Notes under the pieces: generated by a model
Told to the model about the DNA's origin: nothing
Seen by the model: the letters and a program-made list of their open reading frames with translations, nothing else
Database searches by the model: none
Assembly: GCA_964502865.1 (NCBI GenBank)
Contig: CAZCXX010000010.1
Span: 1-23,640, forward strand
DNA from: Candidatus Woesearchaeota archaeon
GTDB taxonomy: Archaea; Nanobdellota; Nanobdellia; Pacearchaeales; GW2011-AR1
Direction: 5' to 3'
DNA: 23,640 nt
Made by a program: the position numbers and the translations under genes
Part shown: positions 2,095 through 18,507 of the stretch, one piece after another
Layout of the letters: every line of letters begins with the position of its first letter
Position numbering within the stretch: position 1 is the first letter of the stretch

Positions 2095-2168
2095 TATAGA
2101 TAATTCCTTTGATTAGAGTAGTGTTTTTGGAATTATCTATCACGAGAATTCTGAACAAATTATTATCC
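2095..2168 (+). repeat. stem-loop repeat family 2, copy A
   Basis: The stem is 2097-2107 tagataattcc paired with 2129-2139 ggaattatcta, around a 21-nt loop. It is followed by the conserved tcacgagaattc, 7 variable nt, and attattatcc. The whole element aligns with 11575-11649 (reverse complement) and 17263-17335. Confidence 0.8.
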
Positions 2169-2212
2169 TAATCATCAGAATTCTCCATACTTGTTAGAGG
2201 GTGCACAGATAT

Positions 2213-2856: not shown

Positions 2857-3336
2857 ATGGCTAAAAAAACTAAAATTCTTATAGACGCAAAACAAAAAAA
2901 AGCTGAAGTTCAGCCTATGAAGCGGAGTGACGTCCCTGTCGGAGCAAAAATTATTTCGGTACTTTACTACATTGGGGCAATTGCTTGTTTGCTTCTTGGT
3001 CTCTTGCTTTTTGTTGCTGCAGGGTTTGCTGATACTATTGCGAATGCCACTGCTGAATTGTCAGGACTTGGTGGCGTTATCGCCACATTAGGAGTAGTCG
3101 GAGGTGTTGTCATGATTGCTGGTGCCGCTCTTTTCTTTTTCATCGGAAGAGGATTATGGAAAGGACAAGCGTGGGCGCGCATTGTAGCAATCATCTTTGC
3201 ACTACTTGGCATTATTTCCGCCGTGAACGCTTTTGCACAAGGTGTTGTACTTGAAGGGATTTTCAACCTTATTGTTGGAGGCGTCATTGGCTGCTACCTG
3301 TTATTTGACAACGAGGTAAAAGCAGCGTTTGCATAA
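2857..3336 (+). CDS. integral membrane protein with about four TM helices, function unknown
   Basis: A Lys-rich N-terminus is followed by four Gly/Ala/Ile-rich hydrophobic segments. I recognise no family. Confidence 0.7.
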   Translation: MAKKTKILIDAKQKKAEVQPMKRSDVPVGAKIISVLYYIGAIACLLLGLLLFVAAGFADTIANATAELSGLGGVIATLGVVGGVVMIAGAALFFFIGRGLWKGQAWARIVAIIFALLGIISAVNAFAQGVVLEGIFNLIVGGVIGCYLLFDNEVKAAFA

Positions 3337-3446: not shown

Positions 3447-3911
3447 TTAGAGCAACTGATCAAGAATTGTTGCATACTGATGCGGAGAGAGGTAGTATCC
3501 CTCTTTGAGAAAGTGGGTGAGGAGTGAGCGTGCTTGCTTCTTTGTAAATATCTTCTTTTTTATTGCTAGGAAAAGAAGAGAGGTTGTTCTGTAATAAGGA
3601 ATTTCCATTGCTCTTGCCGCTTTCATTGCTCTTGCGTCGTCTATAATGATATTGTCTTTCTTTTCTTTTGCCAATGAAAGAGCAGCATTTTCTCCTTTAT
3701 CTAAATCAGTAACAATTTCTTCTTTAGGATCTTCGATAATAATCCATCTTTCGCTTATTGCTTTTAGGATAGGTTGACTCCCTCCTTTTTCATTGTATAT
3801 TACTTCTTCTTTTACTTTTTGTGGAATGCTTATTTTGCCAAAAAGATCCTTTAAGAGGTTTAACTGGTTAGTTTTTGCTAGTATAATTAAAGGAGTAGAA
3901 TCTGAAATCAT
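3447..3911 (-). CDS. PIN-like nuclease toxin (DUF3368 / COG2405-type)
   Basis: It has an ISDSTPLIILAK N-terminus, a GENAALSLAKE acidic motif, and IIIDDARAMKAARAMEI. This layout is typical of DUF3368 PIN-like proteins. Its start overlaps the upstream gene's stop (AATGA). Confidence 0.75.
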   Translation of the reverse strand: MISDSTPLIILAKTNQLNLLKDLFGKISIPQKVKEEVIYNEKGGSQPILKAISERWIIIEDPKEEIVTDLDKGENAALSLAKEKKDNIIIDDARAMKAARAMEIPYYRTTSLLFLAIKKKIFTKKQARSLLTHFLKEGYYLSPHQYATILDQLL

Positions 3912-4210
3912 TTAAGCAGAGAGAGGTCTTTTTTAAGATCTTCTTCGTCATATCCTGTCCAGTTTATGTTTTTCTCTTTTGCTAGGTCTAACATCTCCCA
4001 GAGGGTGACGCCGCATTCTTTAGCAGCCCTTCCTATAGATATCTTATGGGCTGCAAGATTCTCCAAGGCATTCTTTATCTTCCATTCCTTGAGTGCTTCG
4101 GCGAGGAGGCGTCTGACTACTTCGCTTCTGTCAATTTGCCATTTCTTTTCCACTGTTTCGAGCTGGCGTAACTGTTCTTCTCGTAATCGCACCGATATTG
4201 TCTCTGTCAT
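3908..4210 (-). CDS. antitoxin, ribbon-helix-helix fused to a UPF0175 (COG2886)-like domain
   Basis: ISVRLREEQLRQLE...RSEVVRRLLAEAL is RHH-like. LAAHKISIGRAAKECGVTLWEMLDLAKEKNI is UPF0175-like. The start is set at ATG 4210 because of the TATA at 4234-4245. The ORF-track start at 4315 adds 35 low-complexity residues. Confidence 0.75.
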   Translation of the reverse strand: MTETISVRLREEQLRQLETVEKKWQIDRSEVVRRLLAEALKEWKIKNALENLAAHKISIGRAAKECGVTLWEMLDLAKEKNINWTGYDEEDLKKDLSLLK

Positions 4211-4233
4211 GTTTACATTATAATATATCGTAT

Positions 4234-4245
4234 ACTTATAAAGTT
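4234..4245 (-). promoter_or_regulatory. TATA box for the RHH/UPF0175-PIN operon
   Basis: The minus strand reads aactttataagt. The core is about 25 nt upstream of ATG 4210. Confidence 0.6.
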
Positions 4246-4322
4246 TTCTATTATGCTTCGAATTCCCAAGACTTAGAAAACCTACGAGAATTTTGAATAG
4301 AGCAGAGCTGCCCATTAGTGTA

Positions 4323-4544: not shown

Positions 4545-4605
4545 TTCTTTGCTGTAAGATGATTGTTTGTTCATTACTGACGATGAGTGGTTTAGGCCTA
4601 TTTCA

Positions 4606-4697
4606 CTATAGCAAACAACATTAATTTTCGTAGTGCTTGTGTTGTTTGCTAGATAGGAAATCACATAAAAACTACGGAAATTAAAGTGATTTCCTAT
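4606..4697 (+). other. two perfect 12-bp hairpins (H1, H2) whose loops are complementary to each other
   Basis: H1 is 4609-4620 paired with 4640-4651. H2 is 4653-4664 paired with 4686-4697. The H1 loop 4621-4634 is complementary to the H2 loop 4671-4684 at 13 of 14 positions, plus one T:G. Confidence 0.75.
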
Positions 4698-4699
4698 AA

Positions 4700-4788
4700 C
4701 TATAGCAGAAGACCTAAGTCCTTCCCCTAACATCAGGGATTGGCAAATCCTTGACGGAACGGGGAGAAACTTATGTCTTCTGCTATAG
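4700..4788 (+). repeat. hairpin repeat family 1, copy 1 (H3): candidate structured RNA or MITE-like element
   Basis: A 14-bp perfect outer stem pairs ctatagcagaagac with gtcttctgctatag. Inner helices are 4715-4719/4769-4773, 4722-4727/4761-4766, and an apical hairpin at 4733-4754. The flanks recur at 17438-17512. Confidence 0.8.
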
Positions 4789-4870: not shown

Positions 4871-4891
4871 TGGGCGGAGTGTAGATGATTG

Positions 4892-6760
4892 ATGCAAAAG
4901 AGGTTAGCGGCATTACTTGCCGTCGGTGTTTTGAGTGTCCTTCTGGCAAGTTTGTTAGTGAGTGCGTTCTGGCCGTTTTCGCTGACAGGACGTGTGATTG
5001 ATGATTATTCACAACCTGCGTTTACGATGGCGGGAAATTCAAAGGCGAATGTACTTGGGAGTGGGAGTGTTGCGAGCGAGGGGGTGGATGGAAATTCTTT
5101 GAGTTTTGATGGGAAAAGTGGATATTACATGATGAAAGCTTCATCGTGGAACGGTCCGGTTCCGGAAAAAGCAGTAAGTGTTACCGGATGGTTTAAGACA
5201 GGAGCATTCACAACGGGAGCGAATGAAATAACAGGATCATGGGTGTCGAAACGTAATTCGTACAACTTAGATGCGGAAGCAGACGGGAGAGTTATCTTCT
5301 GGGTGTTTTTGGATGGGCAGTGGCACTCGGTTTCTTCTAATAAACCGGGCGACGTAAGTTTGAATATGTGGGAGCATTGGGTTGGGACATGGGATGGCAA
5401 CACGATTTCGCTCTATAAGAACGGCGCATTACTTGCTCAAGCAGCAGCGTCTGGAAAACTTGGAAACACGGGCGACTTATGCATCGGGCATGATTGTGCT
5501 TTGCCTGCACCACATGATAATAGGTATTTCCAGGGACTGGCGGATGAAGTGAGGGTTTATAGCAATGCGCTTTCTGCGGGCGCGGTGAAGAGCCTGTATA
5601 CTGAACAGAAGGGGAAGTTGACGACTGGGTCAAGTGGTAGCAACTTGAGCACTGGAGGCTCGGGAGGCTCTGGTGGTGGTGGTGGTGGTGGAGGGAGTAA
5701 CACGACAAGTGGCGGCAGTGGTGGAGGAGGTACTTCTAACAGTAAATCTTGGGCTGATGTACAATTTGTAGCGAATACTGAGGAATCTGTTAATCTATAT
5801 ACTGATAATTATAAAATATTTGAAGGAGATTATCTCTATAATGTAAAATCAATTATTACTAGTTCAGATTTGCCTAAGTTTCTTGCAAGTGGGAGTGTTG
5901 GAAATCAAAATAATTATTTACAACATATAAGTATTAATCCTTTTGCCAAGTATTCTCTTATTACAAGGGATCTGGCAGGTCATCCCGATGGCCTAGGAAT
6001 TGCACATTTTTCTAGATATGATTCTCCTATTTATAATTTTACCATTACTTTCACTAACGAAGTTGATTTTACAAGACTTAAAGGTCAACAAATAACTATG
6101 TTTGGAAAAACCTTTTTAATTGGAGAAAACACGAAACCCTATCAATTAGAGTTAATAGAAAATAACAATTATTATTACCTTGGGCTTGTATCAGAAGAAA
6201 TTACAACGAGATATTCTGGCGGAATTACTACTGGAAAAGACCGCTTAGGTTATGGGGGAGTTTTATCTGCAGTTCATTTTAATGTTGATTCAAGTGAAAA
6301 ACCTGGTCAAATGTTCACAAAAGTAAAAAGACTCACGTTTCTTTTTGTTGCCAGGCATAGTACGGACAATGTTATATGGGAAGGTGAGGAATATAAAGAT
6401 CCCATTTTTGGTTCTGGTATATTCTTTAAAAGAATTGTGGTGCCTAGTGGTGGCTCTGGTGGCGGAGGAGGAGGATCAGGAGGCTCTGGTGGTGGCGGAT
6501 CTGGCAGCACTGGAAGTACCAATGCATTCTGCGCAAGCACTGGGTGCATAATTGATGGCGGAAAGTGCGTGCCGTTTGGAACACGAGTTGCGGCGAATTA
6601 CTGCGCGCTTGACGGGAAGATGAAAGCGCAGGCAGTGTCGGATGTAACCTGTGGGAATAATTACGAGTGCTCGAGCAATGTGTGTGCGGGTGGAAAGTGC
6701 GTGGATGCTGGCTTGATGCAGAAGATACTAGATTGGTTTAAGAAATTGTTTGGCGGGTAG
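4892..6760 (+). CDS. secreted or anchored multidomain protein: signal anchor, LamG/ConA-like lectin domain, Gly linker, AT-rich beta-rich domain, Gly linker, Cys-rich C-terminal module
   Basis: LamG_3-like signatures are NSLSFDGKSGYY, VTGWFK, WEHWVGTWDGNTISLYKNG and FQGLADEVRVYSNALS. The poly-Gly linkers lie at about 5651-5735 and 6447-6520. The tail has 8 Cys (CASTGC..CV..C..C..C..C..C). The ORF-track start at 4889 is TTG, and ATG follows at 4892. Confidence 0.85.
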   Translation: MQKRLAALLAVGVLSVLLASLLVSAFWPFSLTGRVIDDYSQPAFTMAGNSKANVLGSGSVASEGVDGNSLSFDGKSGYYMMKASSWNGPVPEKAVSVTGWFKTGAFTTGANEITGSWVSKRNSYNLDAEADGRVIFWVFLDGQWHSVSSNKPGDVSLNMWEHWVGTWDGNTISLYKNGALLAQAAASGKLGNTGDLCIGHDCALPAPHDNRYFQGLADEVRVYSNALSAGAVKSLYTEQKGKLTTGSSGSNLSTGGSGGSGGGGGGGGSNTTSGGSGGGGTSNSKSWADVQFVANTEESVNLYTDNYKIFEGDYLYNVKSIITSSDLPKFLASGSVGNQNNYLQHISINPFAKYSLITRDLAGHPDGLGIAHFSRYDSPIYNFTITFTNEVDFTRLKGQQITMFGKTFLIGENTKPYQLELIENNNYYYLGLVSEEITTRYSGGITTGKDRLGYGGVLSAVHFNVDSSEKPGQMFTKVKRLTFLFVARHSTDNVIWEGEEYKDPIFGSGIFFKRIVVPSGGSGGGGGGSGGSGGGGSGSTGSTNAFCASTGCIIDGGKCVPFGTRVAANYCALDGKMKAQAVSDVTCGNNYECSSNVCAGGKCVDAGLMQKILDWFKKLFGG

Positions 6761-9075: not shown

Positions 9076-10093
9076 ACTTGAAATAAAAGTGCAAGGACTA
9101 GTGCAAGGTGTTCGTTTCAGGCAAATAACTGAGAAACATGCGCGAAAGCTGGGCTTGTGTGGATATGTCATGAATCGCAGCGATGGGAGTGTGGATATCG
9201 TTGCGCAGGGTGAACGTGCATCATTGCGAGCACTTCTCCATTGGATTGAAGAAAGCCCGGGATTTTCTCGTATCAATGGTGTGCAGTATCATTGGCACGC
9301 TCCAACGCAGACGTTTTCAGAGTTTCGCATTGTGAAGGATAGTTCATTTATCAAAGACCAAGCAAAAAGTTTTTTTAATTTAGGCAAGACACTACTATCG
9401 CGACGGAAGAGTAACTGGCCCGTGCCTGTAACGATTATACCTGATGGAAATCGGCGATGGGCGCGTACGCGAGGACAAGAGCCACATTTTGGACATTACA
9501 CGTCAGCAAGTTTTCAACATTTGCAAGAATTGTTTGCAACGGCGCGAGCGTATGGAGTAAAATACCTGACAATATGGGGCTTTTCAACAGAAAACTGGAA
9601 ACGTGCTGCTGCAGAACGCCTAGCGTTGTTTGCTCTTTTAGAACAGGGAGTAGAACGTCTTCGTACAGAACTTGCACTTCACTGCATCCGGTTTCGCCAC
9701 ATTGGAAGAAAGGACCGGTTGCCTCCCTCGCTCATTGCAGCACTCGCGGCACTAGAAAGTGAGAGTGCGTCGTATACTGAATTTAATGTTCAACTCTGCC
9801 TGGATTATGGTGGCAGCGATGAATTGGTTCGTGCGGTAAACAAGCTTTTAGCATCAGGGACTCACCAGATTGATGAGAATGCATTAGTGCATGCGCTTGA
9901 TGCACCGGATATACCTGCCGTTGATTTAATCATACGAACTTCTGGCGAACAACGCGTGAGCGGGTTTATGCCCCTTCAAGCAGCGTATGCAGAATTATAT
10001 TTTAGTTCTGTACATTTTCCTGATTTTGACGCACGGGCGTTTAAAGAAGCCTTAGAAGCGTATTGCAAACGAGGGAGACGATTTGGCAATTAA
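9062..10093 (+). CDS. uppS: fusion of acylphosphatase and cis-prenyltransferase (undecaprenyl-diphosphate synthase family)
   Basis: The N-terminus has both acylphosphatase signatures, VQGLVQGVRFR and GYVMNRSDGSV. The C-terminus has IIPDGNRRWAR, WGFSTENWKR and IRTSGEQRVSGF..AYAELYF..FPDF. The start is set at ATG 9062, with GAGGAG 8 nt upstream. It overlaps the DHH gene by 14 nt. Confidence 0.85.
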   Translation: MGMYELEIKVQGLVQGVRFRQITEKHARKLGLCGYVMNRSDGSVDIVAQGERASLRALLHWIEESPGFSRINGVQYHWHAPTQTFSEFRIVKDSSFIKDQAKSFFNLGKTLLSRRKSNWPVPVTIIPDGNRRWARTRGQEPHFGHYTSASFQHLQELFATARAYGVKYLTIWGFSTENWKRAAAERLALFALLEQGVERLRTELALHCIRFRHIGRKDRLPPSLIAALAALESESASYTEFNVQLCLDYGGSDELVRAVNKLLASGTHQIDENALVHALDAPDIPAVDLIIRTSGEQRVSGFMPLQAAYAELYFSSVHFPDFDARAFKEALEAYCKRGRRFGN

Positions 10094-10125
10094 AATGGTT
10101 TCTGGGACTTTTATCCCCATTAGCA

Positions 10126-10138
10126 ACTTTTAAATAAT
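10126..10138 (+). promoter_or_regulatory. TATA box for the 10155 gene
   Basis: acttttaaataat lies about 19-28 nt upstream of the ATG cluster at 10155/10158/10164. Confidence 0.6.
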
Positions 10139-10154
10139 TCTCTTACTCACTTAC

Positions 10155-11510
10155 ATGATGCGTATGTTTTTTTCTGTGATGATTCTCTTTGTCGTTGTCA
10201 GTATGAGCATGAGCAGTGCATTTTGGCCGTTTGACTGGAGTTCTCGTTTGTTCACAGGATTATCTGTTACAAATGTTGCATGTAGTGACAGTGATGGATT
10301 GAACACGAGTATTCTCGGAACAACGAGTGGAAGTGATATATATGGTGGAAATCTAAGCTCGGTTGCAACTTATACCGATCGATGCCAAAATCCCACTATG
10401 GTGCTTGAATTTTCATGCAAGGGTGCTGATGGTGTTATTGGTACCAATGTAAGTTGCTCTCAAGCGTGCGTTGATGGGGTGTGCACAAATCTTTCGATGA
10501 ATGCGAGTGTCAAAAATGCTACCACTGGAAATATAAATTCTTCTTCTGCTTCTGCATTTCCAGATCCGTTGTCACCTGAATCTGAAGACTTTTTTGAGGA
10601 ATTCACACTCGAAGATTTCATTACTCCTGCAGGTGTTGCGAACGCACAACCTGACTTACCTCGACAAATTGCACCAACGCCGGGGGATGAAGAAGAAAAT
10701 GTGAGTACGAATGAAAGCAGCAGAGGAAAATTAGCCGATGAAGAATATTTTGATCCCCCCCTCAACAAATTGCTTTTGAATTTGACCGTTAACACAACGA
10801 GCACGCCACTGCGACTTATTGGACGAGGGACATTTGTCGAGAAATCGGTGCTCTTCCCCCAATTTTTACCAAATGTGCGGCCGGATGCAGGCTTATATGC
10901 AAATTGTGATTTTGTGTATCAGAACGATTCCGTAGTTTCTAACGTTTCTCTTCCGCGAGGAAGTTCGACTATGCTCTATGTAAGCGCTCTTTCTCCCTCA
11001 TTTAAGTGTCCACGGAGAGGAAATGTCGACCTTGAAATTGCCTATCGGTTAGTCAATGTCGGCGTTGCTGAAGTCTTCCCCGATGGTGCACCACACGCGT
11101 GTCGTGCTCCTTGGTACTCTCCTTCATTGCAAACTACTGGTCTCACGATTGTTCGTACACCGTTCACGGTGCAACGTGTGATTGTAAAACCTGGAAAGGA
11201 AAATCGCGTTGTTCAGGGAACGTTTGTTGTTCCGGTTCGATCAGGAAGCGCGACGAATTTCAATCATTTTCATTACACTTCCCCACGGAGTGTGTATCTT
11301 GAAGCGTTCAGAGGAAATACTGGAGATTATGTCAGTATGGAATTCACTTTGGTGCGGTGTGTCGAAGGAAAAGGTGCTCACGAAGTTAATCGATCACGCT
11401 ATTCTTCGGATTCAAAAGAGATTCCTGAACCTAGATTTTTTACTCGCGCATGGTGCAAAGTAGTCTCATGGTTCGGGATGGATTACGAAAGTTGCCTATA
11501 CAAAGAATAA
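10155..11510 (+). CDS. secreted or anchored protein with an N-terminal six-Cys module, function unknown
   Basis: A signal anchor ends in SSAFWPF. The module CSDSDG..TDRC..LEFSC..SCSQACVDGVC lies at 10281-10484. An acidic linker and a large beta-rich C-terminal region follow. Confidence 0.75.
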   Translation: MMRMFFSVMILFVVVSMSMSSAFWPFDWSSRLFTGLSVTNVACSDSDGLNTSILGTTSGSDIYGGNLSSVATYTDRCQNPTMVLEFSCKGADGVIGTNVSCSQACVDGVCTNLSMNASVKNATTGNINSSSASAFPDPLSPESEDFFEEFTLEDFITPAGVANAQPDLPRQIAPTPGDEEENVSTNESSRGKLADEEYFDPPLNKLLLNLTVNTTSTPLRLIGRGTFVEKSVLFPQFLPNVRPDAGLYANCDFVYQNDSVVSNVSLPRGSSTMLYVSALSPSFKCPRRGNVDLEIAYRLVNVGVAEVFPDGAPHACRAPWYSPSLQTTGLTIVRTPFTVQRVIVKPGKENRVVQGTFVVPVRSGSATNFNHFHYTSPRSVYLEAFRGNTGDYVSMEFTLVRCVEGKGAHEVNRSRYSSDSKEIPEPRFFTRAWCKVVSWFGMDYESCLYKE

Positions 11511-11574
11511 GCTTGAAGTCGAAACGTTTTTATACTTCAGGGTGGTTTTTGAAGTATGGTGAATTCTGGTAATT

Positions 11575-11649
11575 GGGATAATAATCTGCCTCGAATTCTC
11601 GTGATAGATAATTCCCAAAAACCTACTCCAATAAAGGGAATTATCTACA
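11575..11649 (-). repeat. stem-loop repeat family 2, copy B (inverted relative to A and C)
   Basis: The stem is 11605-11616 tagataattccc paired with 11636-11647 gggaattatcta. The reverse complement aligns over its full length with copy A. The element ends 2 nt before ATG 11650. Confidence 0.8.
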
Positions 11650-12045
11650 ATGAAGTACGAGCATGAGGGTTTTTTGGGTTTTTTTATCGTCGGGGTTGCT
11701 TTTGTGCTTCTTTTTACGTTCGTGTTCATTACTCTGTCAACAGGCACAACAGGGCTTTTAACAGGAAATGCAGTGTTTAAAGATAACACTCCATTTCCGG
11801 ATTCCAAATCGGGATGTACCGATAGCGATGGCGGAATTTATTCTTTGGTTGCCGGCAATATTACTTATCGCGCCGGAGGCGCTTATCTTCTAACTGATAC
11901 ATGTCGTGATCGTGAATGGGGTCGAGCAGTAGTTGTAGAATATTATTGTCGCGATGACAAGGTCCGTATTATTAATATTCCTTGCAAATATGGATGCAAG
12001 AAAGGTGCATGTTTTGATTCATATTATAACGCCAGTTTTAAATAG
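11650..12045 (+). CDS. small anchored protein consisting of a TM segment plus the six-Cys module
   Basis: The TM segment is FLGFFIVGVAFVLLFTFVFITL, followed by LLTGNAV. The module CTDSDGG..TDTC..VEYYC..PCKYGCKKGAC lies at 11815-12012. Confidence 0.7.
   Translation: MKYEHEGFLGFFIVGVAFVLLFTFVFITLSTGTTGLLTGNAVFKDNTPFPDSKSGCTDSDGGIYSLVAGNITYRAGGAYLLTDTCRDREWGRAVVVEYYCRDDKVRIINIPCKYGCKKGACFDSYYNASFK
12035..12045 (+). promoter_or_regulatory. TATA box for the deoxyhypusine synthase gene (overlaps the upstream stop codon)
   Basis: gttttaaatag lies 22 nt upstream of ATG 12066. Confidence 0.6.
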
Positions 12046-12065
12046 CATTTCATCATTGATTTCTC

Positions 12066-15145: not shown

Positions 15146-16093
15146 ATGTGCATAAGAGGGGTGAACGTAGGGTTTTTTCTTGCGATAGCTCTCATTTTTG
15201 GATCGTTTTTTGTGTCGGCAGTTGACGTTGCGACACCTGTGGGTTTTTCGTTGACTCCTCACGAAAGTAGCATTGCACTTTCATGGTTATCTTCAGCGGA
15301 GAACGTACTTGTCTGGCGGGCGTATGATGCTGAAGGACCGTGGTTTATTCATGAGGTTGTTGCGGCGTCGAGGGGAAGGTATGAGGATACAGACATTGAG
15401 CAATCGACGCGGTATTACTACCGCGTGCAAGGGCTTTCTAGCAGAACGATGTCAGGGTTTTCTGAAACACTGTCAGCGCTCGTGACATATGACGAAGACA
15501 TTGTACTCGTTAATGCCGCGGATGATTTAAGCGAAGTGCCTGAGGTGGGCGAAGGAGAAGGATTGTCGAATGAGGAATATGAGCAGCGCTTAGCTTTATA
15601 CAATCACCATCTGCTTTGCAAGAAATTGGCACAAGAGACACCGGGTGTTTTTATTGAGGCAGGGTGCGATCCACGAAAGAATGTCGGTGAGGGAACGAGC
15701 GGAACTCTTGGCGATCTTTTGCCCGGAACTACAAAATTACCTGATAAGAAAGCAGCTGATTTGAGTGATAAAATTGAGAAGTCGGGAACGGCAGGAGGTG
15801 GTTCGGATTCAGGCTCGAGTAACACCGGAGGTGGCGGTGGTGGCGGTGGTGGCGGCTCGGGAAGTGGAGGTTCTGGAGGCGCAGGAGGAATCGGGGTGAA
15901 CGAAGGACGAGGTTTCGTTGCGGTGTGTGATGATTGGGAATGCGTGACAGTACCGGTGCTGATTGAACGTGGGGGCGAGAGATGGCAATTAGGGTATTAT
16001 CCGGAAGAGTTTGGTGTGGAGAAGGCGCGGCTTTCGTACCGAAGCACGCAGGGGAAATTTATGAGCGTGGATACAGCTTTTTCTGAAGAGTAA
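15146..16093 (+). CDS. secreted protein with an FN3-like domain, an acidic region, a poly-Gly linker and a small C-terminal domain
   Basis: The signal peptide is GFFLAIALIFGSFFVSA. The FN3-like pattern is LTPHESSIALSW...VWRA...RYEDTDIEQSTRYYYRVQG. The Gly linker lies at about 15791-15895. Confidence 0.7.
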   Translation: MCIRGVNVGFFLAIALIFGSFFVSAVDVATPVGFSLTPHESSIALSWLSSAENVLVWRAYDAEGPWFIHEVVAASRGRYEDTDIEQSTRYYYRVQGLSSRTMSGFSETLSALVTYDEDIVLVNAADDLSEVPEVGEGEGLSNEEYEQRLALYNHHLLCKKLAQETPGVFIEAGCDPRKNVGEGTSGTLGDLLPGTTKLPDKKAADLSDKIEKSGTAGGGSDSGSSNTGGGGGGGGGGSGSGGSGGAGGIGVNEGRGFVAVCDDWECVTVPVLIERGGERWQLGYYPEEFGVEKARLSYRSTQGKFMSVDTAFSEE

Positions 16094-17262: not shown

Positions 17263-17335
17263 TATGGATAATTCTGTTGATTAGTCTTCGTTTCCAGAAT
17301 TATCCATCACGAGAATTTTGTACAAATATTATATC
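17263..17335 (+). repeat. stem-loop repeat family 2, copy C
   Basis: The stem is 17265-17276 tggataattctg paired with 17295-17306 cagaattatcca, a perfect 12 bp. It is followed by tcacgagaatttt, 7 nt, and atattatatc. It is collinear with copy A. Confidence 0.8.
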
Positions 17336-17437
17336 AATTAACAGAATTATCGATACTTGATGCGTGAAGCATGCACTGCGAAAAACCGCTCCTTCTGAGC
17401 GGGTTGCAAAACATTAAAAAGCTTCTGAAATAGATAA

Positions 17438-17513
17438 TTATAGTGGAAGACCTAAGTCCTTCCCCTAATAGCAGACGACTGAACGGGGAGAAACTTATGT
17501 CGTCTGCTATATA
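17438..17513 (+). repeat. hairpin repeat family 1, copy 2, ending 2 nt before the tRNA
   Basis: 17438-17468 matches 4700-4730 at 28 of 31 positions. 17482-17512 matches 4758-4788 at 29 of 31. The core differs, 13 nt here against 27 nt in copy 1. Confidence 0.8.
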
Positions 17514-17514
17514 C

Positions 17515-17601
17515 GGGCCCATAGTTTAGTGGATAGAATTCGAGGCTTCGGCATGCACTTGGAGAAACCTTGAGACCAGGGTTCGATTCCCTGTGGGCCC
17601 G
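17515..17601 (+). tRNA. tRNA-Arg (anticodon UCG) with a 15-nt intron at the canonical 37/38 position
   Basis: The acceptor stem is GGGCCCA/TGGGCCC with discriminator G. The D-loop is AGTGGATA. The anticodon stem is CGAGG/CCTTG. The T-arm is CAGGG-TTCGATT-CCCTG. The intron at 17552-17566 allows the helix CUUC/GGAG, flanked by 3-nt bulges in a relaxed bulge-helix-bulge. No CCA is encoded. Confidence 0.85.
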
Positions 17602-18507
17602 TTATTTCTTCTTTCCATCGAGGGAGATGGTGATTTTAAGAAGCCCTCCGATGCCAATGAGGACTTCTTCCCATCCTTTCTGATCTGCAATTTTACAGAT
17701 AGAGAGAGTAACTGGAACGTCGCCAATCTGACCCGTGCAATAGCGGTTGTACATACGCTGCATTGGAAGAATTTTATCCTGGAGTGTGGTGCCGAGCGTT
17801 AATGCGTCAGGCTTCTCAAGTCGTATGGTTGTTTTGTAAAAACATCCTGAGTCTGCACCCCAGACATTATCTTGGGTTTTGTCGCTGTTAGTTGTCATGA
17901 GCGATGTGGCATTCTTTTCAGGAGATTTTAGGATTTCATTTCCTGTTTCATGTACTGTTCTAATCGAGGGGTTTTTGAAAACAAAGAACTTACAAAACTC
18001 TGGAGGAGAGTATTTCTCTTTGTTTGAGAGGGAGTAAGGGGGTTCAACATTGAGGATAAACGGCTCGGCATTATCCGTACCTTCATTTGCTACGAGGAAT
18101 ATTAACTCGTCGCCTGGTTCTGCATTTTCGAATGCTTCATCAAAAGCGACTTCATTTGTTGTGTTATCATCGATTTCCGCATCAGATATTTCCCATTCGG
18201 TATTTTCGCAGGCAGTACCTTCTGCATTACAAGAGTTATCACATACCACGGTTTTCGAGCTTGCACGTTTTCCGTTACATGTGTGTTCGCGCGCGATTCC
18301 TTTCCTGCAGGTGTCAACGAGAGTACGCGTCGTTCCAAATATAGTTTCATAGGTTACTTTTCCTGGAATTTTTTCATATGGACCGTCATCTGTTTCAGCA
18401 CACGTGATTTCCTGAGAGATTACGTTACCTGTTGTTTTGACTGCAACAAACGCGAGCGCAGCAGAGAGCAGTAGAAAGAGAAGGATGAATGGAATGCTTT
18501 TTTTCAT
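17602..18507 (-). CDS. secreted protein with an N-terminal six-Cys module, function unknown
   Basis: The signal peptide is MKKSIPFILLFLLLSAALA, followed by KTTGNV. The module CAETDDG..VDTC..EHTC..VCDNSCNAEGTAC lies at 18208-18402. The start is set at ATG 18507, 23 nt from the TATA. The stop codon abuts the tRNA 3' end. Confidence 0.75.
   Translation of the reverse strand: MKKSIPFILLFLLLSAALAFVAVKTTGNVISQEITCAETDDGPYEKIPGKVTYETIFGTTRTLVDTCRKGIAREHTCNGKRASSKTVVCDNSCNAEGTACENTEWEISDAEIDDNTTNEVAFDEAFENAEPGDELIFLVANEGTDNAEPFILNVEPPYSLSNKEKYSPPEFCKFFVFKNPSIRTVHETGNEILKSPEKNATSLMTTNSDKTQDNVWGADSGCFYKTTIRLEKPDALTLGTTLQDKILPMQRMYNRYCTGQIGDVPVTLSICKIADQKGWEEVLIGIGGLLKITISLDGKKK

Follow-up and report, generated by a model that had tools for sequence, protein, structure and literature searches.

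The stretch of DNA that we analyzed, 23,640 nucleotides from a Woesearchaeota archaeon (hereafter the window), carries three stem-loop modules. They are very probably copies of a MITE, a non-autonomous element that duplicates TA on insertion and that we infer to be mobilized in trans by a transposase of the IS630/Tc1-mariner type. In the mechanism we propose, a cut-and-paste DDE transposase of that type would move the element in trans. The element inserts at TA and duplicates it, and it has spread to many non-homologous, mostly intergenic sites in DPANN genomes (Woese-, Pace- and 'Nano'-archaeota). It also inserts into its own copies, and the insert-bearing derivatives are still copied. The compensated changes in its stems would be the upkeep of each terminal palindrome, not the sign of a dedicated RNA gene. 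The properties on which we base the name are those of MITEs in general: the element is non-coding and stays well within the length of a MITE (below about 300 bp), it has terminal inverted repeats and a target duplication of fixed length, it occupies many non-homologous sites, and genomes differ in its presence or absence.

A first-pass annotation of the window had described three modules of about 74 nt. All three lie where it had placed them, but each is about 95 nt long and runs about 21 nt further at its 3' end (Table 1). Aligned three ways, copies A, B, and C remain alike as far as ...CAGAATT(C/A)(T/A)C(C/G)ATA. A window-wide repeat search recovered arms of 99 nt, 84% complementary, between copies A and B (I1), and three matches to the 21-mer GAATTATCYATCACGAGAATT lie in the window, a number that stays the same with three mismatches allowed, where dinucleotide shuffles expect 0.00. 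The stems had been read correctly in every copy: tagataattcc with ggaattatcta in copy A, tagataattccc with gggaattatcta in copy B, and tggataattctg with cagaattatcca in copy C. This stem is what we call hairpin 1. The rest of the shared layout had been taken for 'tcacgagaatt', seven variable nucleotides and 'attattatcc'; it is really the 5' arm and the loop of a second hairpin, whose 3' arm (CAGAATTCTCC / CAGAATTATCG) forms the element's right end.

The complete element therefore reads TA-[arm, 18-21-nt loop, inverted arm]-TCAC-[arm, ~22-nt loop, inverted arm]-TA. Each of the four arms is a version of T(A/G)GA(N)AATTC(Y)(S), successive arms pointing in opposite directions. Since the outermost arms are inverted copies of each other, the element has terminal inverted repeats of 12 to 20 nt. 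In copy C the repeat search returned this terminal repeat as 20 nt at 90% (TATGGATAATTCTGTTGATT / AATTAACAGAATTATCGATA, I14). The 12-nt termini are 74% complementary across 30 copies, and the profile model of the element also matches its own reverse strand. In copy A the loop of hairpin 1 is 21 nt long and closes with a T5 run, and the 3' arm of hairpin 2 is the right terminal repeat. Within the window the element body measures 89 to 91 nt, and in other copies it reaches about 93 nt; it holds no ORF of its own.

Table 1. Copies of the putative MITE in the window and their parts.
Feature	Position	Strand	Details
Putative MITE copy A, type-1 subfamily	2095-2189	+	nhmmer 84 bits
Copy A, parts	TA 2095-2096; element body 2097-2187; TA 2188-2189	+	
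Copy A, hairpin 1	2097-2139	+	paired arms: TAGATAATTCC (2097-2107, left terminal repeat) and GGAATTATCTA (2129-2139, its inverted copy)
Copy A, hairpin 2	2144-2185	+	GAGAATTCTGA (2144-2154) pairs with TCAGAATTCTC (2175-2185)
Putative MITE copy B, type-1 subfamily	11555-11649	-	nhmmer 75 bits
Copy B, parts	TA 11555-11556; element body 11557-11647; degenerate TA 11648-11649	-	degenerate TA is CA on the + strand
Putative MITE copy C, type-2 subfamily	17263-17355	+	nhmmer 67 bits
Copy C, parts	TA 17263-17264; element body 17265-17353; TA 17354-17355	+	

The element is widely dispersed. Beyond the window, pattern scans turned up more than 40 copies, which lie at unrelated loci in MAGs of Woesearchaeota, Pacearchaeota, and 'Nanoarchaeota' and in groundwater metagenomes. 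A 19-base core pattern, scanned against one genome per species, gave nine loci, five of them true copies in four MAGs labeled Woesearchaeota or Pacearchaeota; the other four were chance matches that share nothing beyond the pattern. The metagenome scan was anchored on hairpin 2 only, which left hairpin 1 unbiased, and it yielded 56 loci, about 33 of which hold true copies with unrelated flanks. One metagenome contig of 138 kb has up to three copies. When all collected loci were searched with the nhmmer profile, 40 matches reached at least 50 bits, and several weaker, divergent copies came in addition; two of the loci (L010 and L011) are the same locus as window copy B. No copy was matched in the viral contigs, phage records, and plasmid records that we searched. 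The copies belong to a family that has diversified into subfamilies.

How the element inserts can be read from copies that sit inside other copies. At locus L027 a divergent member of the family is nested in the loop of another copy, so that the canonical CTTGAT-TA-GTATAA has become CTTGAT-TA-(TGGACAATTCTG...CAGAATTACCTA)-TA-GTATAA, with an insert of 93 nt. At L064 a member in reversed orientation breaks the left arm, turning TATAGA-TA-ATTCC into TATAGA-TA-(insert)-TA-ATTCC; without the insert and one TA, the sequence is identical to window copy A. The comparison of filled with uninterrupted sequence in these two cases shows that insertion duplicates exactly TA. The same dinucleotide borders the family as a whole: all 30 distinct copies have the 3' TA, and 29 have the 5' TA as well, the one exception being window copy B, with a degenerate TG in its place. 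A copy with a 51-nt insert in the internal arm of hairpin 1 is found at two loci with different flanks (L034 and L061), which means that this derivative was itself copied.

Other small elements make use of the same kind of site. At L051 an unrelated double-hairpin element of about 80 nt, with arms TAGTGNACCAA, is nested at the TA of ATC-TA-TCACG (4597-4676). We had taken this locus for a striking case of covariation, a different stem at the same position, and have withdrawn that reading because the upstream sequence is the nested unrelated element. A second mini-element, 49 to 51 nt long, lies at TA in L034 (~1097-1147) and L061 (~3206-3256) and is made of two mini-hairpins, CAAAGAC/GTCTTTG and CAAGAATC/GATTCTTG. 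The TA-flanked double-hairpin design thus seems, from these examples, to recur in these genomes.

Comparison with related loci tells of insertion at the scale of single spacers. L070 shares its gene order with the window (ligase, TBP, a small gene). It holds a copy that belongs to another subfamily and points the other way; this copy is placed between the TBP stop and a promoter-like block that is conserved (GTTTTTAAAG...TTTCTAATGAGGTGG), and window copy A sits across that block from it. Opposite orientation, a different subfamily and the other side of the block together make the two insertions in the TBP-downstream spacer independent. Only 35 to 57 nt separate DHS (deoxyhypusine synthase) from its upstream gene in L068, L069, and L070. 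The window spacer before DHS is 555 nt (11511-12065) and contains copy B together with a 131-aa ORF.

Duplication of a TA target is classical for the IS630/Tc1-mariner group (PMC7386202). Judged by the TA duplication alone, the enzyme that mobilizes the element would most likely be a transposase of that type. In about 480 kb of DPANN loci, we found no IS630-type or DDE_3 transposase when ORFs were clustered all-against-all and the multi-copy candidates scanned with Pfam, and no autonomous parent (a long element bounded by the repeats) among motif pairs 0.5 to 3 kb apart. The one candidate to turn up, L027 7562-8647, has a weak rve_2 fragment and is not bounded by MITE repeats. As an observation apart, this ORF of 362 aa has a paralogue of 507 aa at 9566-11086, the two lie about 0.8 kb from a MITE copy, and neither is repeat-bounded; the 362-aa ORF combines its weak match to rve_2 (integrase core; E = 3e-5) with a SEC-C motif.

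We return now to the stems. The compensated changes that had been claimed from three copies hold in a larger alignment, of 30 distinct full-length copies (four of them divergent) compared with 500 shuffles, and they reach hairpin 2 as well. Over the two hairpins 89.2% of the pairing cells are paired, against 83.1% in the shuffles; 9 of 25 stem pairs have changed on both sides (5.9 shuffled), as have 51 stem cells (16.1 shuffled), and the covariation score is 0.195 (0.089 shuffled). Not one of the 500 shuffles reaches the observed value on any of these measures. If the 3' partners are shifted by 1 to 3 columns, pairing falls to 29-49%. Between the left and the right terminus there is no covariation in the 30 copies: 74.2% of cells are paired, and 470 of the 500 shuffles are at least as high. 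Covariation within each hairpin and not from end to end is not what one would expect from simple recognition of both ends by one transposase. Something besides one protein binding both ends keeps each hairpin complementary. This suggests either that each palindrome needs to form a hairpin, as single-stranded DNA or as read-through RNA, or that imperfect palindromes are corrected by template switching in replication, a known mutational route to 'compensated' changes.

Could the element then be a single-stranded DNA element, moved not by a DDE transposase but by a hairpin-recognizing HUH/Y1 enzyme, as are REP/REPIN sequences (by RAYT) and the PATEs derived from IS200/IS605? Hairpins that serve as recognition structures would directly explain why covariation is confined to two local hairpins and is absent between the termini, and a similar hairpin at each end necessarily resembles terminal inverted repeats. 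REP, BIME, and REPIN sequences and PATEs share with our element hairpin units in alternating orientation, an extragenic location, abundance, and compensatory upkeep. There are also the other small double-hairpin elements of the same design in the same genomes, such as the L051 insert, and, as weak evidence, the tolerance of G·T wobbles on one strand. The details of the ends speak differently. IS200/IS605 elements make no target duplication, have asymmetric ends with hairpins 10 to 20 nt from the cleavage sites, and insert beside a target motif of 4 to 5 nt that lies on one side only, whereas here the feet of the hairpins adjoin TA symmetrically, left and right, and each insertion brings one more TA. 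REP and REPIN units likewise leave no target duplication; they are imperfect palindromes of 20 to 40 nt that begin with a conserved 5' GT(A/G)G head, have a short loop, and go with a RAYT gene. The arms of our element begin T(A/G)GA, and its loops of 18 to 22 nt are far longer than those of REP or IS200/IS605 hairpins. Among the neighboring genes of the loci examined, none close to a copy was a Y1/RAYT or TnpB gene. We consider movement by a HUH/Y1 enzyme improbable.

A broader proposal, which we regard as unlikely, is that these sequences form a distinct archaeal class of mobile element in which terminal hairpins, and not double-stranded inverted repeats, are the functional units. The class would include the main family, the L051 insert with its TAGTGNACCAA arms, and the mini-element of 49 to 51 nt in L034 and L061. 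If it were real, covariation within the hairpins would reflect true structural selection, and the hairpins would be either read as single-stranded DNA by a DPANN enzyme or selected as RNA stem-loops that the element carries into promoters and 5' UTRs, of which copies A and B would be examples.

The reading of the modules as RNA deserves the fullest account, for the first-pass annotation had reasoned that decaying MITE copies would not keep pairing and that a structured transcript was the simplest explanation. That reasoning fails on an element that is very probably a MITE and keeps pairing all the same. Were the modules autonomous small-RNA genes, or a conserved cis-regulatory RNA with several paralogues per genome, their stems would be selected RNA helices. 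The strong covariation of two helices over 30 copies is what such a family would show, and the predicted fold of copy A is stable (z = -5.6). The two-hairpin structure of copy A, however, forms on both strands with similar energy (-29.1 and -29.8 kcal/mol), so that the reverse strand folds equally well; the plus strand of copy C folds instead by pairing end to end. Among stem cells that are not Watson-Crick, 15 are G·T and 8 are A·C on the displayed strand, a slight excess in the direction expected of an RNA that is not significant, in copies that are related and share changes; we set it aside as uninformative about the strand.

The genes of the window are archaeal (TBP, DHS, GatB/E, ProRS, an ATP-dependent ligase). 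The closest homologues of its DHS are 76-80% identical and, where named, belong to 'Nanoarchaeota' or 'Pacearchaeota' MAGs. Across genomes that are only this similar in DHS, the element sequence is highly conserved, and conservation of that degree would, on these sequences, also fit a selected function such as that of an RNA.

The surroundings of the copies do not favor an RNA gene. An autonomous archaeal small-RNA gene would be expected to have its own BRE/TATA promoter at a set distance upstream and to yield a discrete, strand-specific transcript; the upstream flanks of the copies have no promoter in common, being unrelated in sequence. Orientation relative to neighboring genes is random, as the earlier remark on its inconsistency had it, and many copies lie between convergent gene ends. 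Nested insertions break the stem or the loop, one interrupted copy has still been propagated, and the TA duplication at the nested junctions is a signature of DNA transposition. Rfam gave nothing at gathering thresholds and only noise beneath them (the best sub-threshold match scored 18.6 bits against a cut-off of 45). We also considered and rejected a C/D-box sRNA. The marks of such RNAs are a C box (RUGAUGA) and a D box (CUGA), both conserved; copy A has a C-box-like CTGATGA on its minus strand, and Rfam returns sub-threshold snoRNA matches, but these rest on ATCATCAG (reverse complement CTGATGAT), which only some copies have and which the family does not conserve, and a D box is absent. Nothing here is evidence of a small-RNA gene; the compensated changes belong to the inverted repeats of a transposon. 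An RNA family of either kind we judge very improbable.

The same annotation had left the choice between a small RNA gene and a mobile, promoter-proximal module. Mobility has strong support in the TA duplication, the dispersal, and the re-copied composite; the RNA gene has no specific support. Once duplicate loci are removed, gene ends outnumber gene starts by 17 to 11 on either side of the element, so proximity to promoters is not a trait of the family.

These counts bear also on the idea that the repeat is a transcription-factor operator or promoter cassette, with four half-sites round a TATA-like loop and neighbors that belong to one regulon. The GAATTC-centered motif does occur four times in alternating orientation; loop 2 (ACAAATTTTATTC), some 23 nt short of the 3' end, is rich in A and T; an ATG stands 3 nt past the 3' end in L003/L060, and a gene start adjoins the 5' end of window copies B and C. 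Yet gene ends outnumber gene starts on both sides of the copies, and the neighboring genes are functionally unrelated. Loop 2 differs by subfamily and is a poor match to the TATA boxes of the lineage, which read TTTATATA in L068-L070. About 100 nt is conserved where intergenic DNA is otherwise unalignable, which is unlike the way operators evolve, and nested insertions with TA duplication would be left unexplained. An operator we think extremely improbable, and an outward promoter cassette was rejected as a property of the family for want of any gene-start bias in the flanks and on the variability of loop 2.

Each of the three window copies lies near a putative promoter. Copy A is found between the TBP stop (2033) and the gene at 2213, some 25 nt before the start codon of that gene; a TATA-like block that is conserved, GTTTTTAAAGTG (2053-2064), precedes the copy by about 30 nt. 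If the GTTTTTAAAGTG promoter is used, copy A is probably within the 5' UTR of the 2213 gene. Copy B directly adjoins ATG 11650 of the 131-aa ORF. Removing copy B and one TA leaves TTTTTATA-20 nt-TA-ATG (cgTTTTTATA-20 nt-TA-ATG), and this reconstructed site has the geometry of a leaderless promoter, like the DHS promoters of relatives (TTTATATA-21 nt-ATG), which indicates that copy B landed between a TATA box and a start codon. We infer that it split the promoter of a leaderless gene from the start codon, the two now being 95 nt apart. Copy C is about 15 nt upstream of the TATA-like box of an amino-acid permease gene on the minus strand. Such positions would fit TA-targeted insertion into AT-rich promoter DNA and do not imply a function; as a by-product, the copies may alter the expression of their neighbors.

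Several other features of the window were noted along the way. The 131-aa ORF (11650-12045) is a lineage-specific gene for a predicted small protein, hydrophobic at its N-terminus and Cys-rich in its tail, and a DHS promoter-like GTTTTAAATAGC overlaps its stop codon. Copies of a second repeat family, unrelated to the first and about 78 to 91 nt long, lie at 4698-4788 and 17434-17511; they are 88-94% identical and differ by a central indel of 14 nt. They have inverted arms of 28 nt (CTATAGCAGAAGACCTAAGTCCTTCCCC / GGGGAGAAACTTATGTCTTCTGCTATAG) with TA on both sides (TA-TAGCAGAAGAC...GTCTTCTGCTA-TA), and by these features the family is probably another TA-duplicating MITE. The copy at 17434-17511 ends 2 to 3 nt before tRNA-Ala and is 78 nt from MITE copy C. 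That tRNA-Ala(GGC), called by ARAGORN at 17514-17602, is 89 nt long with its anticodon at position 37, longer than a standard tRNA, and may contain an intron or an extended arm; the Rfam tRNA model matches 17515-17601 at 53.7 bits. GGN-rich codon runs that encode Gly/Ser-rich linkers (5654-5732 and 6449-6517) are repeated within a 623-aa protein with a Laminin_G_3 domain (4889-6760), and a similar run at 15818-15889 lies in a 315-aa protein (15146-16093). A gene pair on the minus strand (3447-4315), PIN-domain and UPF0175, is likely a toxin-antitoxin module. It is part of a stretch of about 5 kb, from TBP to a nucleotidyltransferase gene, whose content differs from that of L068 and L070 and which looks like a MITE-rich variable region.

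Among known systems, the element resembles the MITEs derived from IS630/Tc1-mariner transposons, such as RUP of Streptococcus pneumoniae, plant Stowaway, and MITEEc1 of ISfinder; the properties of RUP and Stowaway are textbook knowledge, and the likeness is drawn from their description. All are non-coding and about 100 nt long, have terminal inverted repeats and a 2-bp TA duplication, and occur as tens of intergenic copies in subfamilies. The present family differs in its host, a DPANN archaeon, in having no cognate IS630 element in the ~480 kb of DPANN loci, and in its two adjacent, locally covarying hairpins in place of one long left-right hairpin. Correia elements of Neisseria (CREE/NEMIS), of about 100 to 150 bp, also duplicate TA and have inverted ends; they often lie beside genes, join promoters or 5' UTRs, and form hairpins in transcripts. 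Their host is bacterial, there is no sequence relationship, and they have their own 26-bp terminal repeats and documented roles as promoters and with IHF and RNase III. In Archaea, the MITEs of a prokaryote-wide census (PMC11602168) and SM1-SM4 of Sulfolobus are likewise short, non-autonomous, intergenic repeats. The part of the census on which we draw gives DPANN genomes, including a Woesearchaeon, the highest archaeal MITE densities, 105-146 per Mb, and does not describe a two-hairpin anatomy, TA duplication, or covariation of hairpins (PMC11602168).

A puzzling 'covarying stem-loop' is thus explained, very probably, as a transposon. There is a warning about method in this: compensation within an inverted repeat does not on its own point to an RNA gene, for the DNA palindromes of mobile elements can covary just as strongly. 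For the organisms, it would mean that MITEs are dense in very small DPANN genomes, with three copies of the main family and two of the second in 23.6 kb. Insertions at TA sites in AT-rich promoter regions would be plausible drivers of differences in expression between strains, and the family could serve as a marker that links contigs, hosts, or viruses in groundwater metagenomes.
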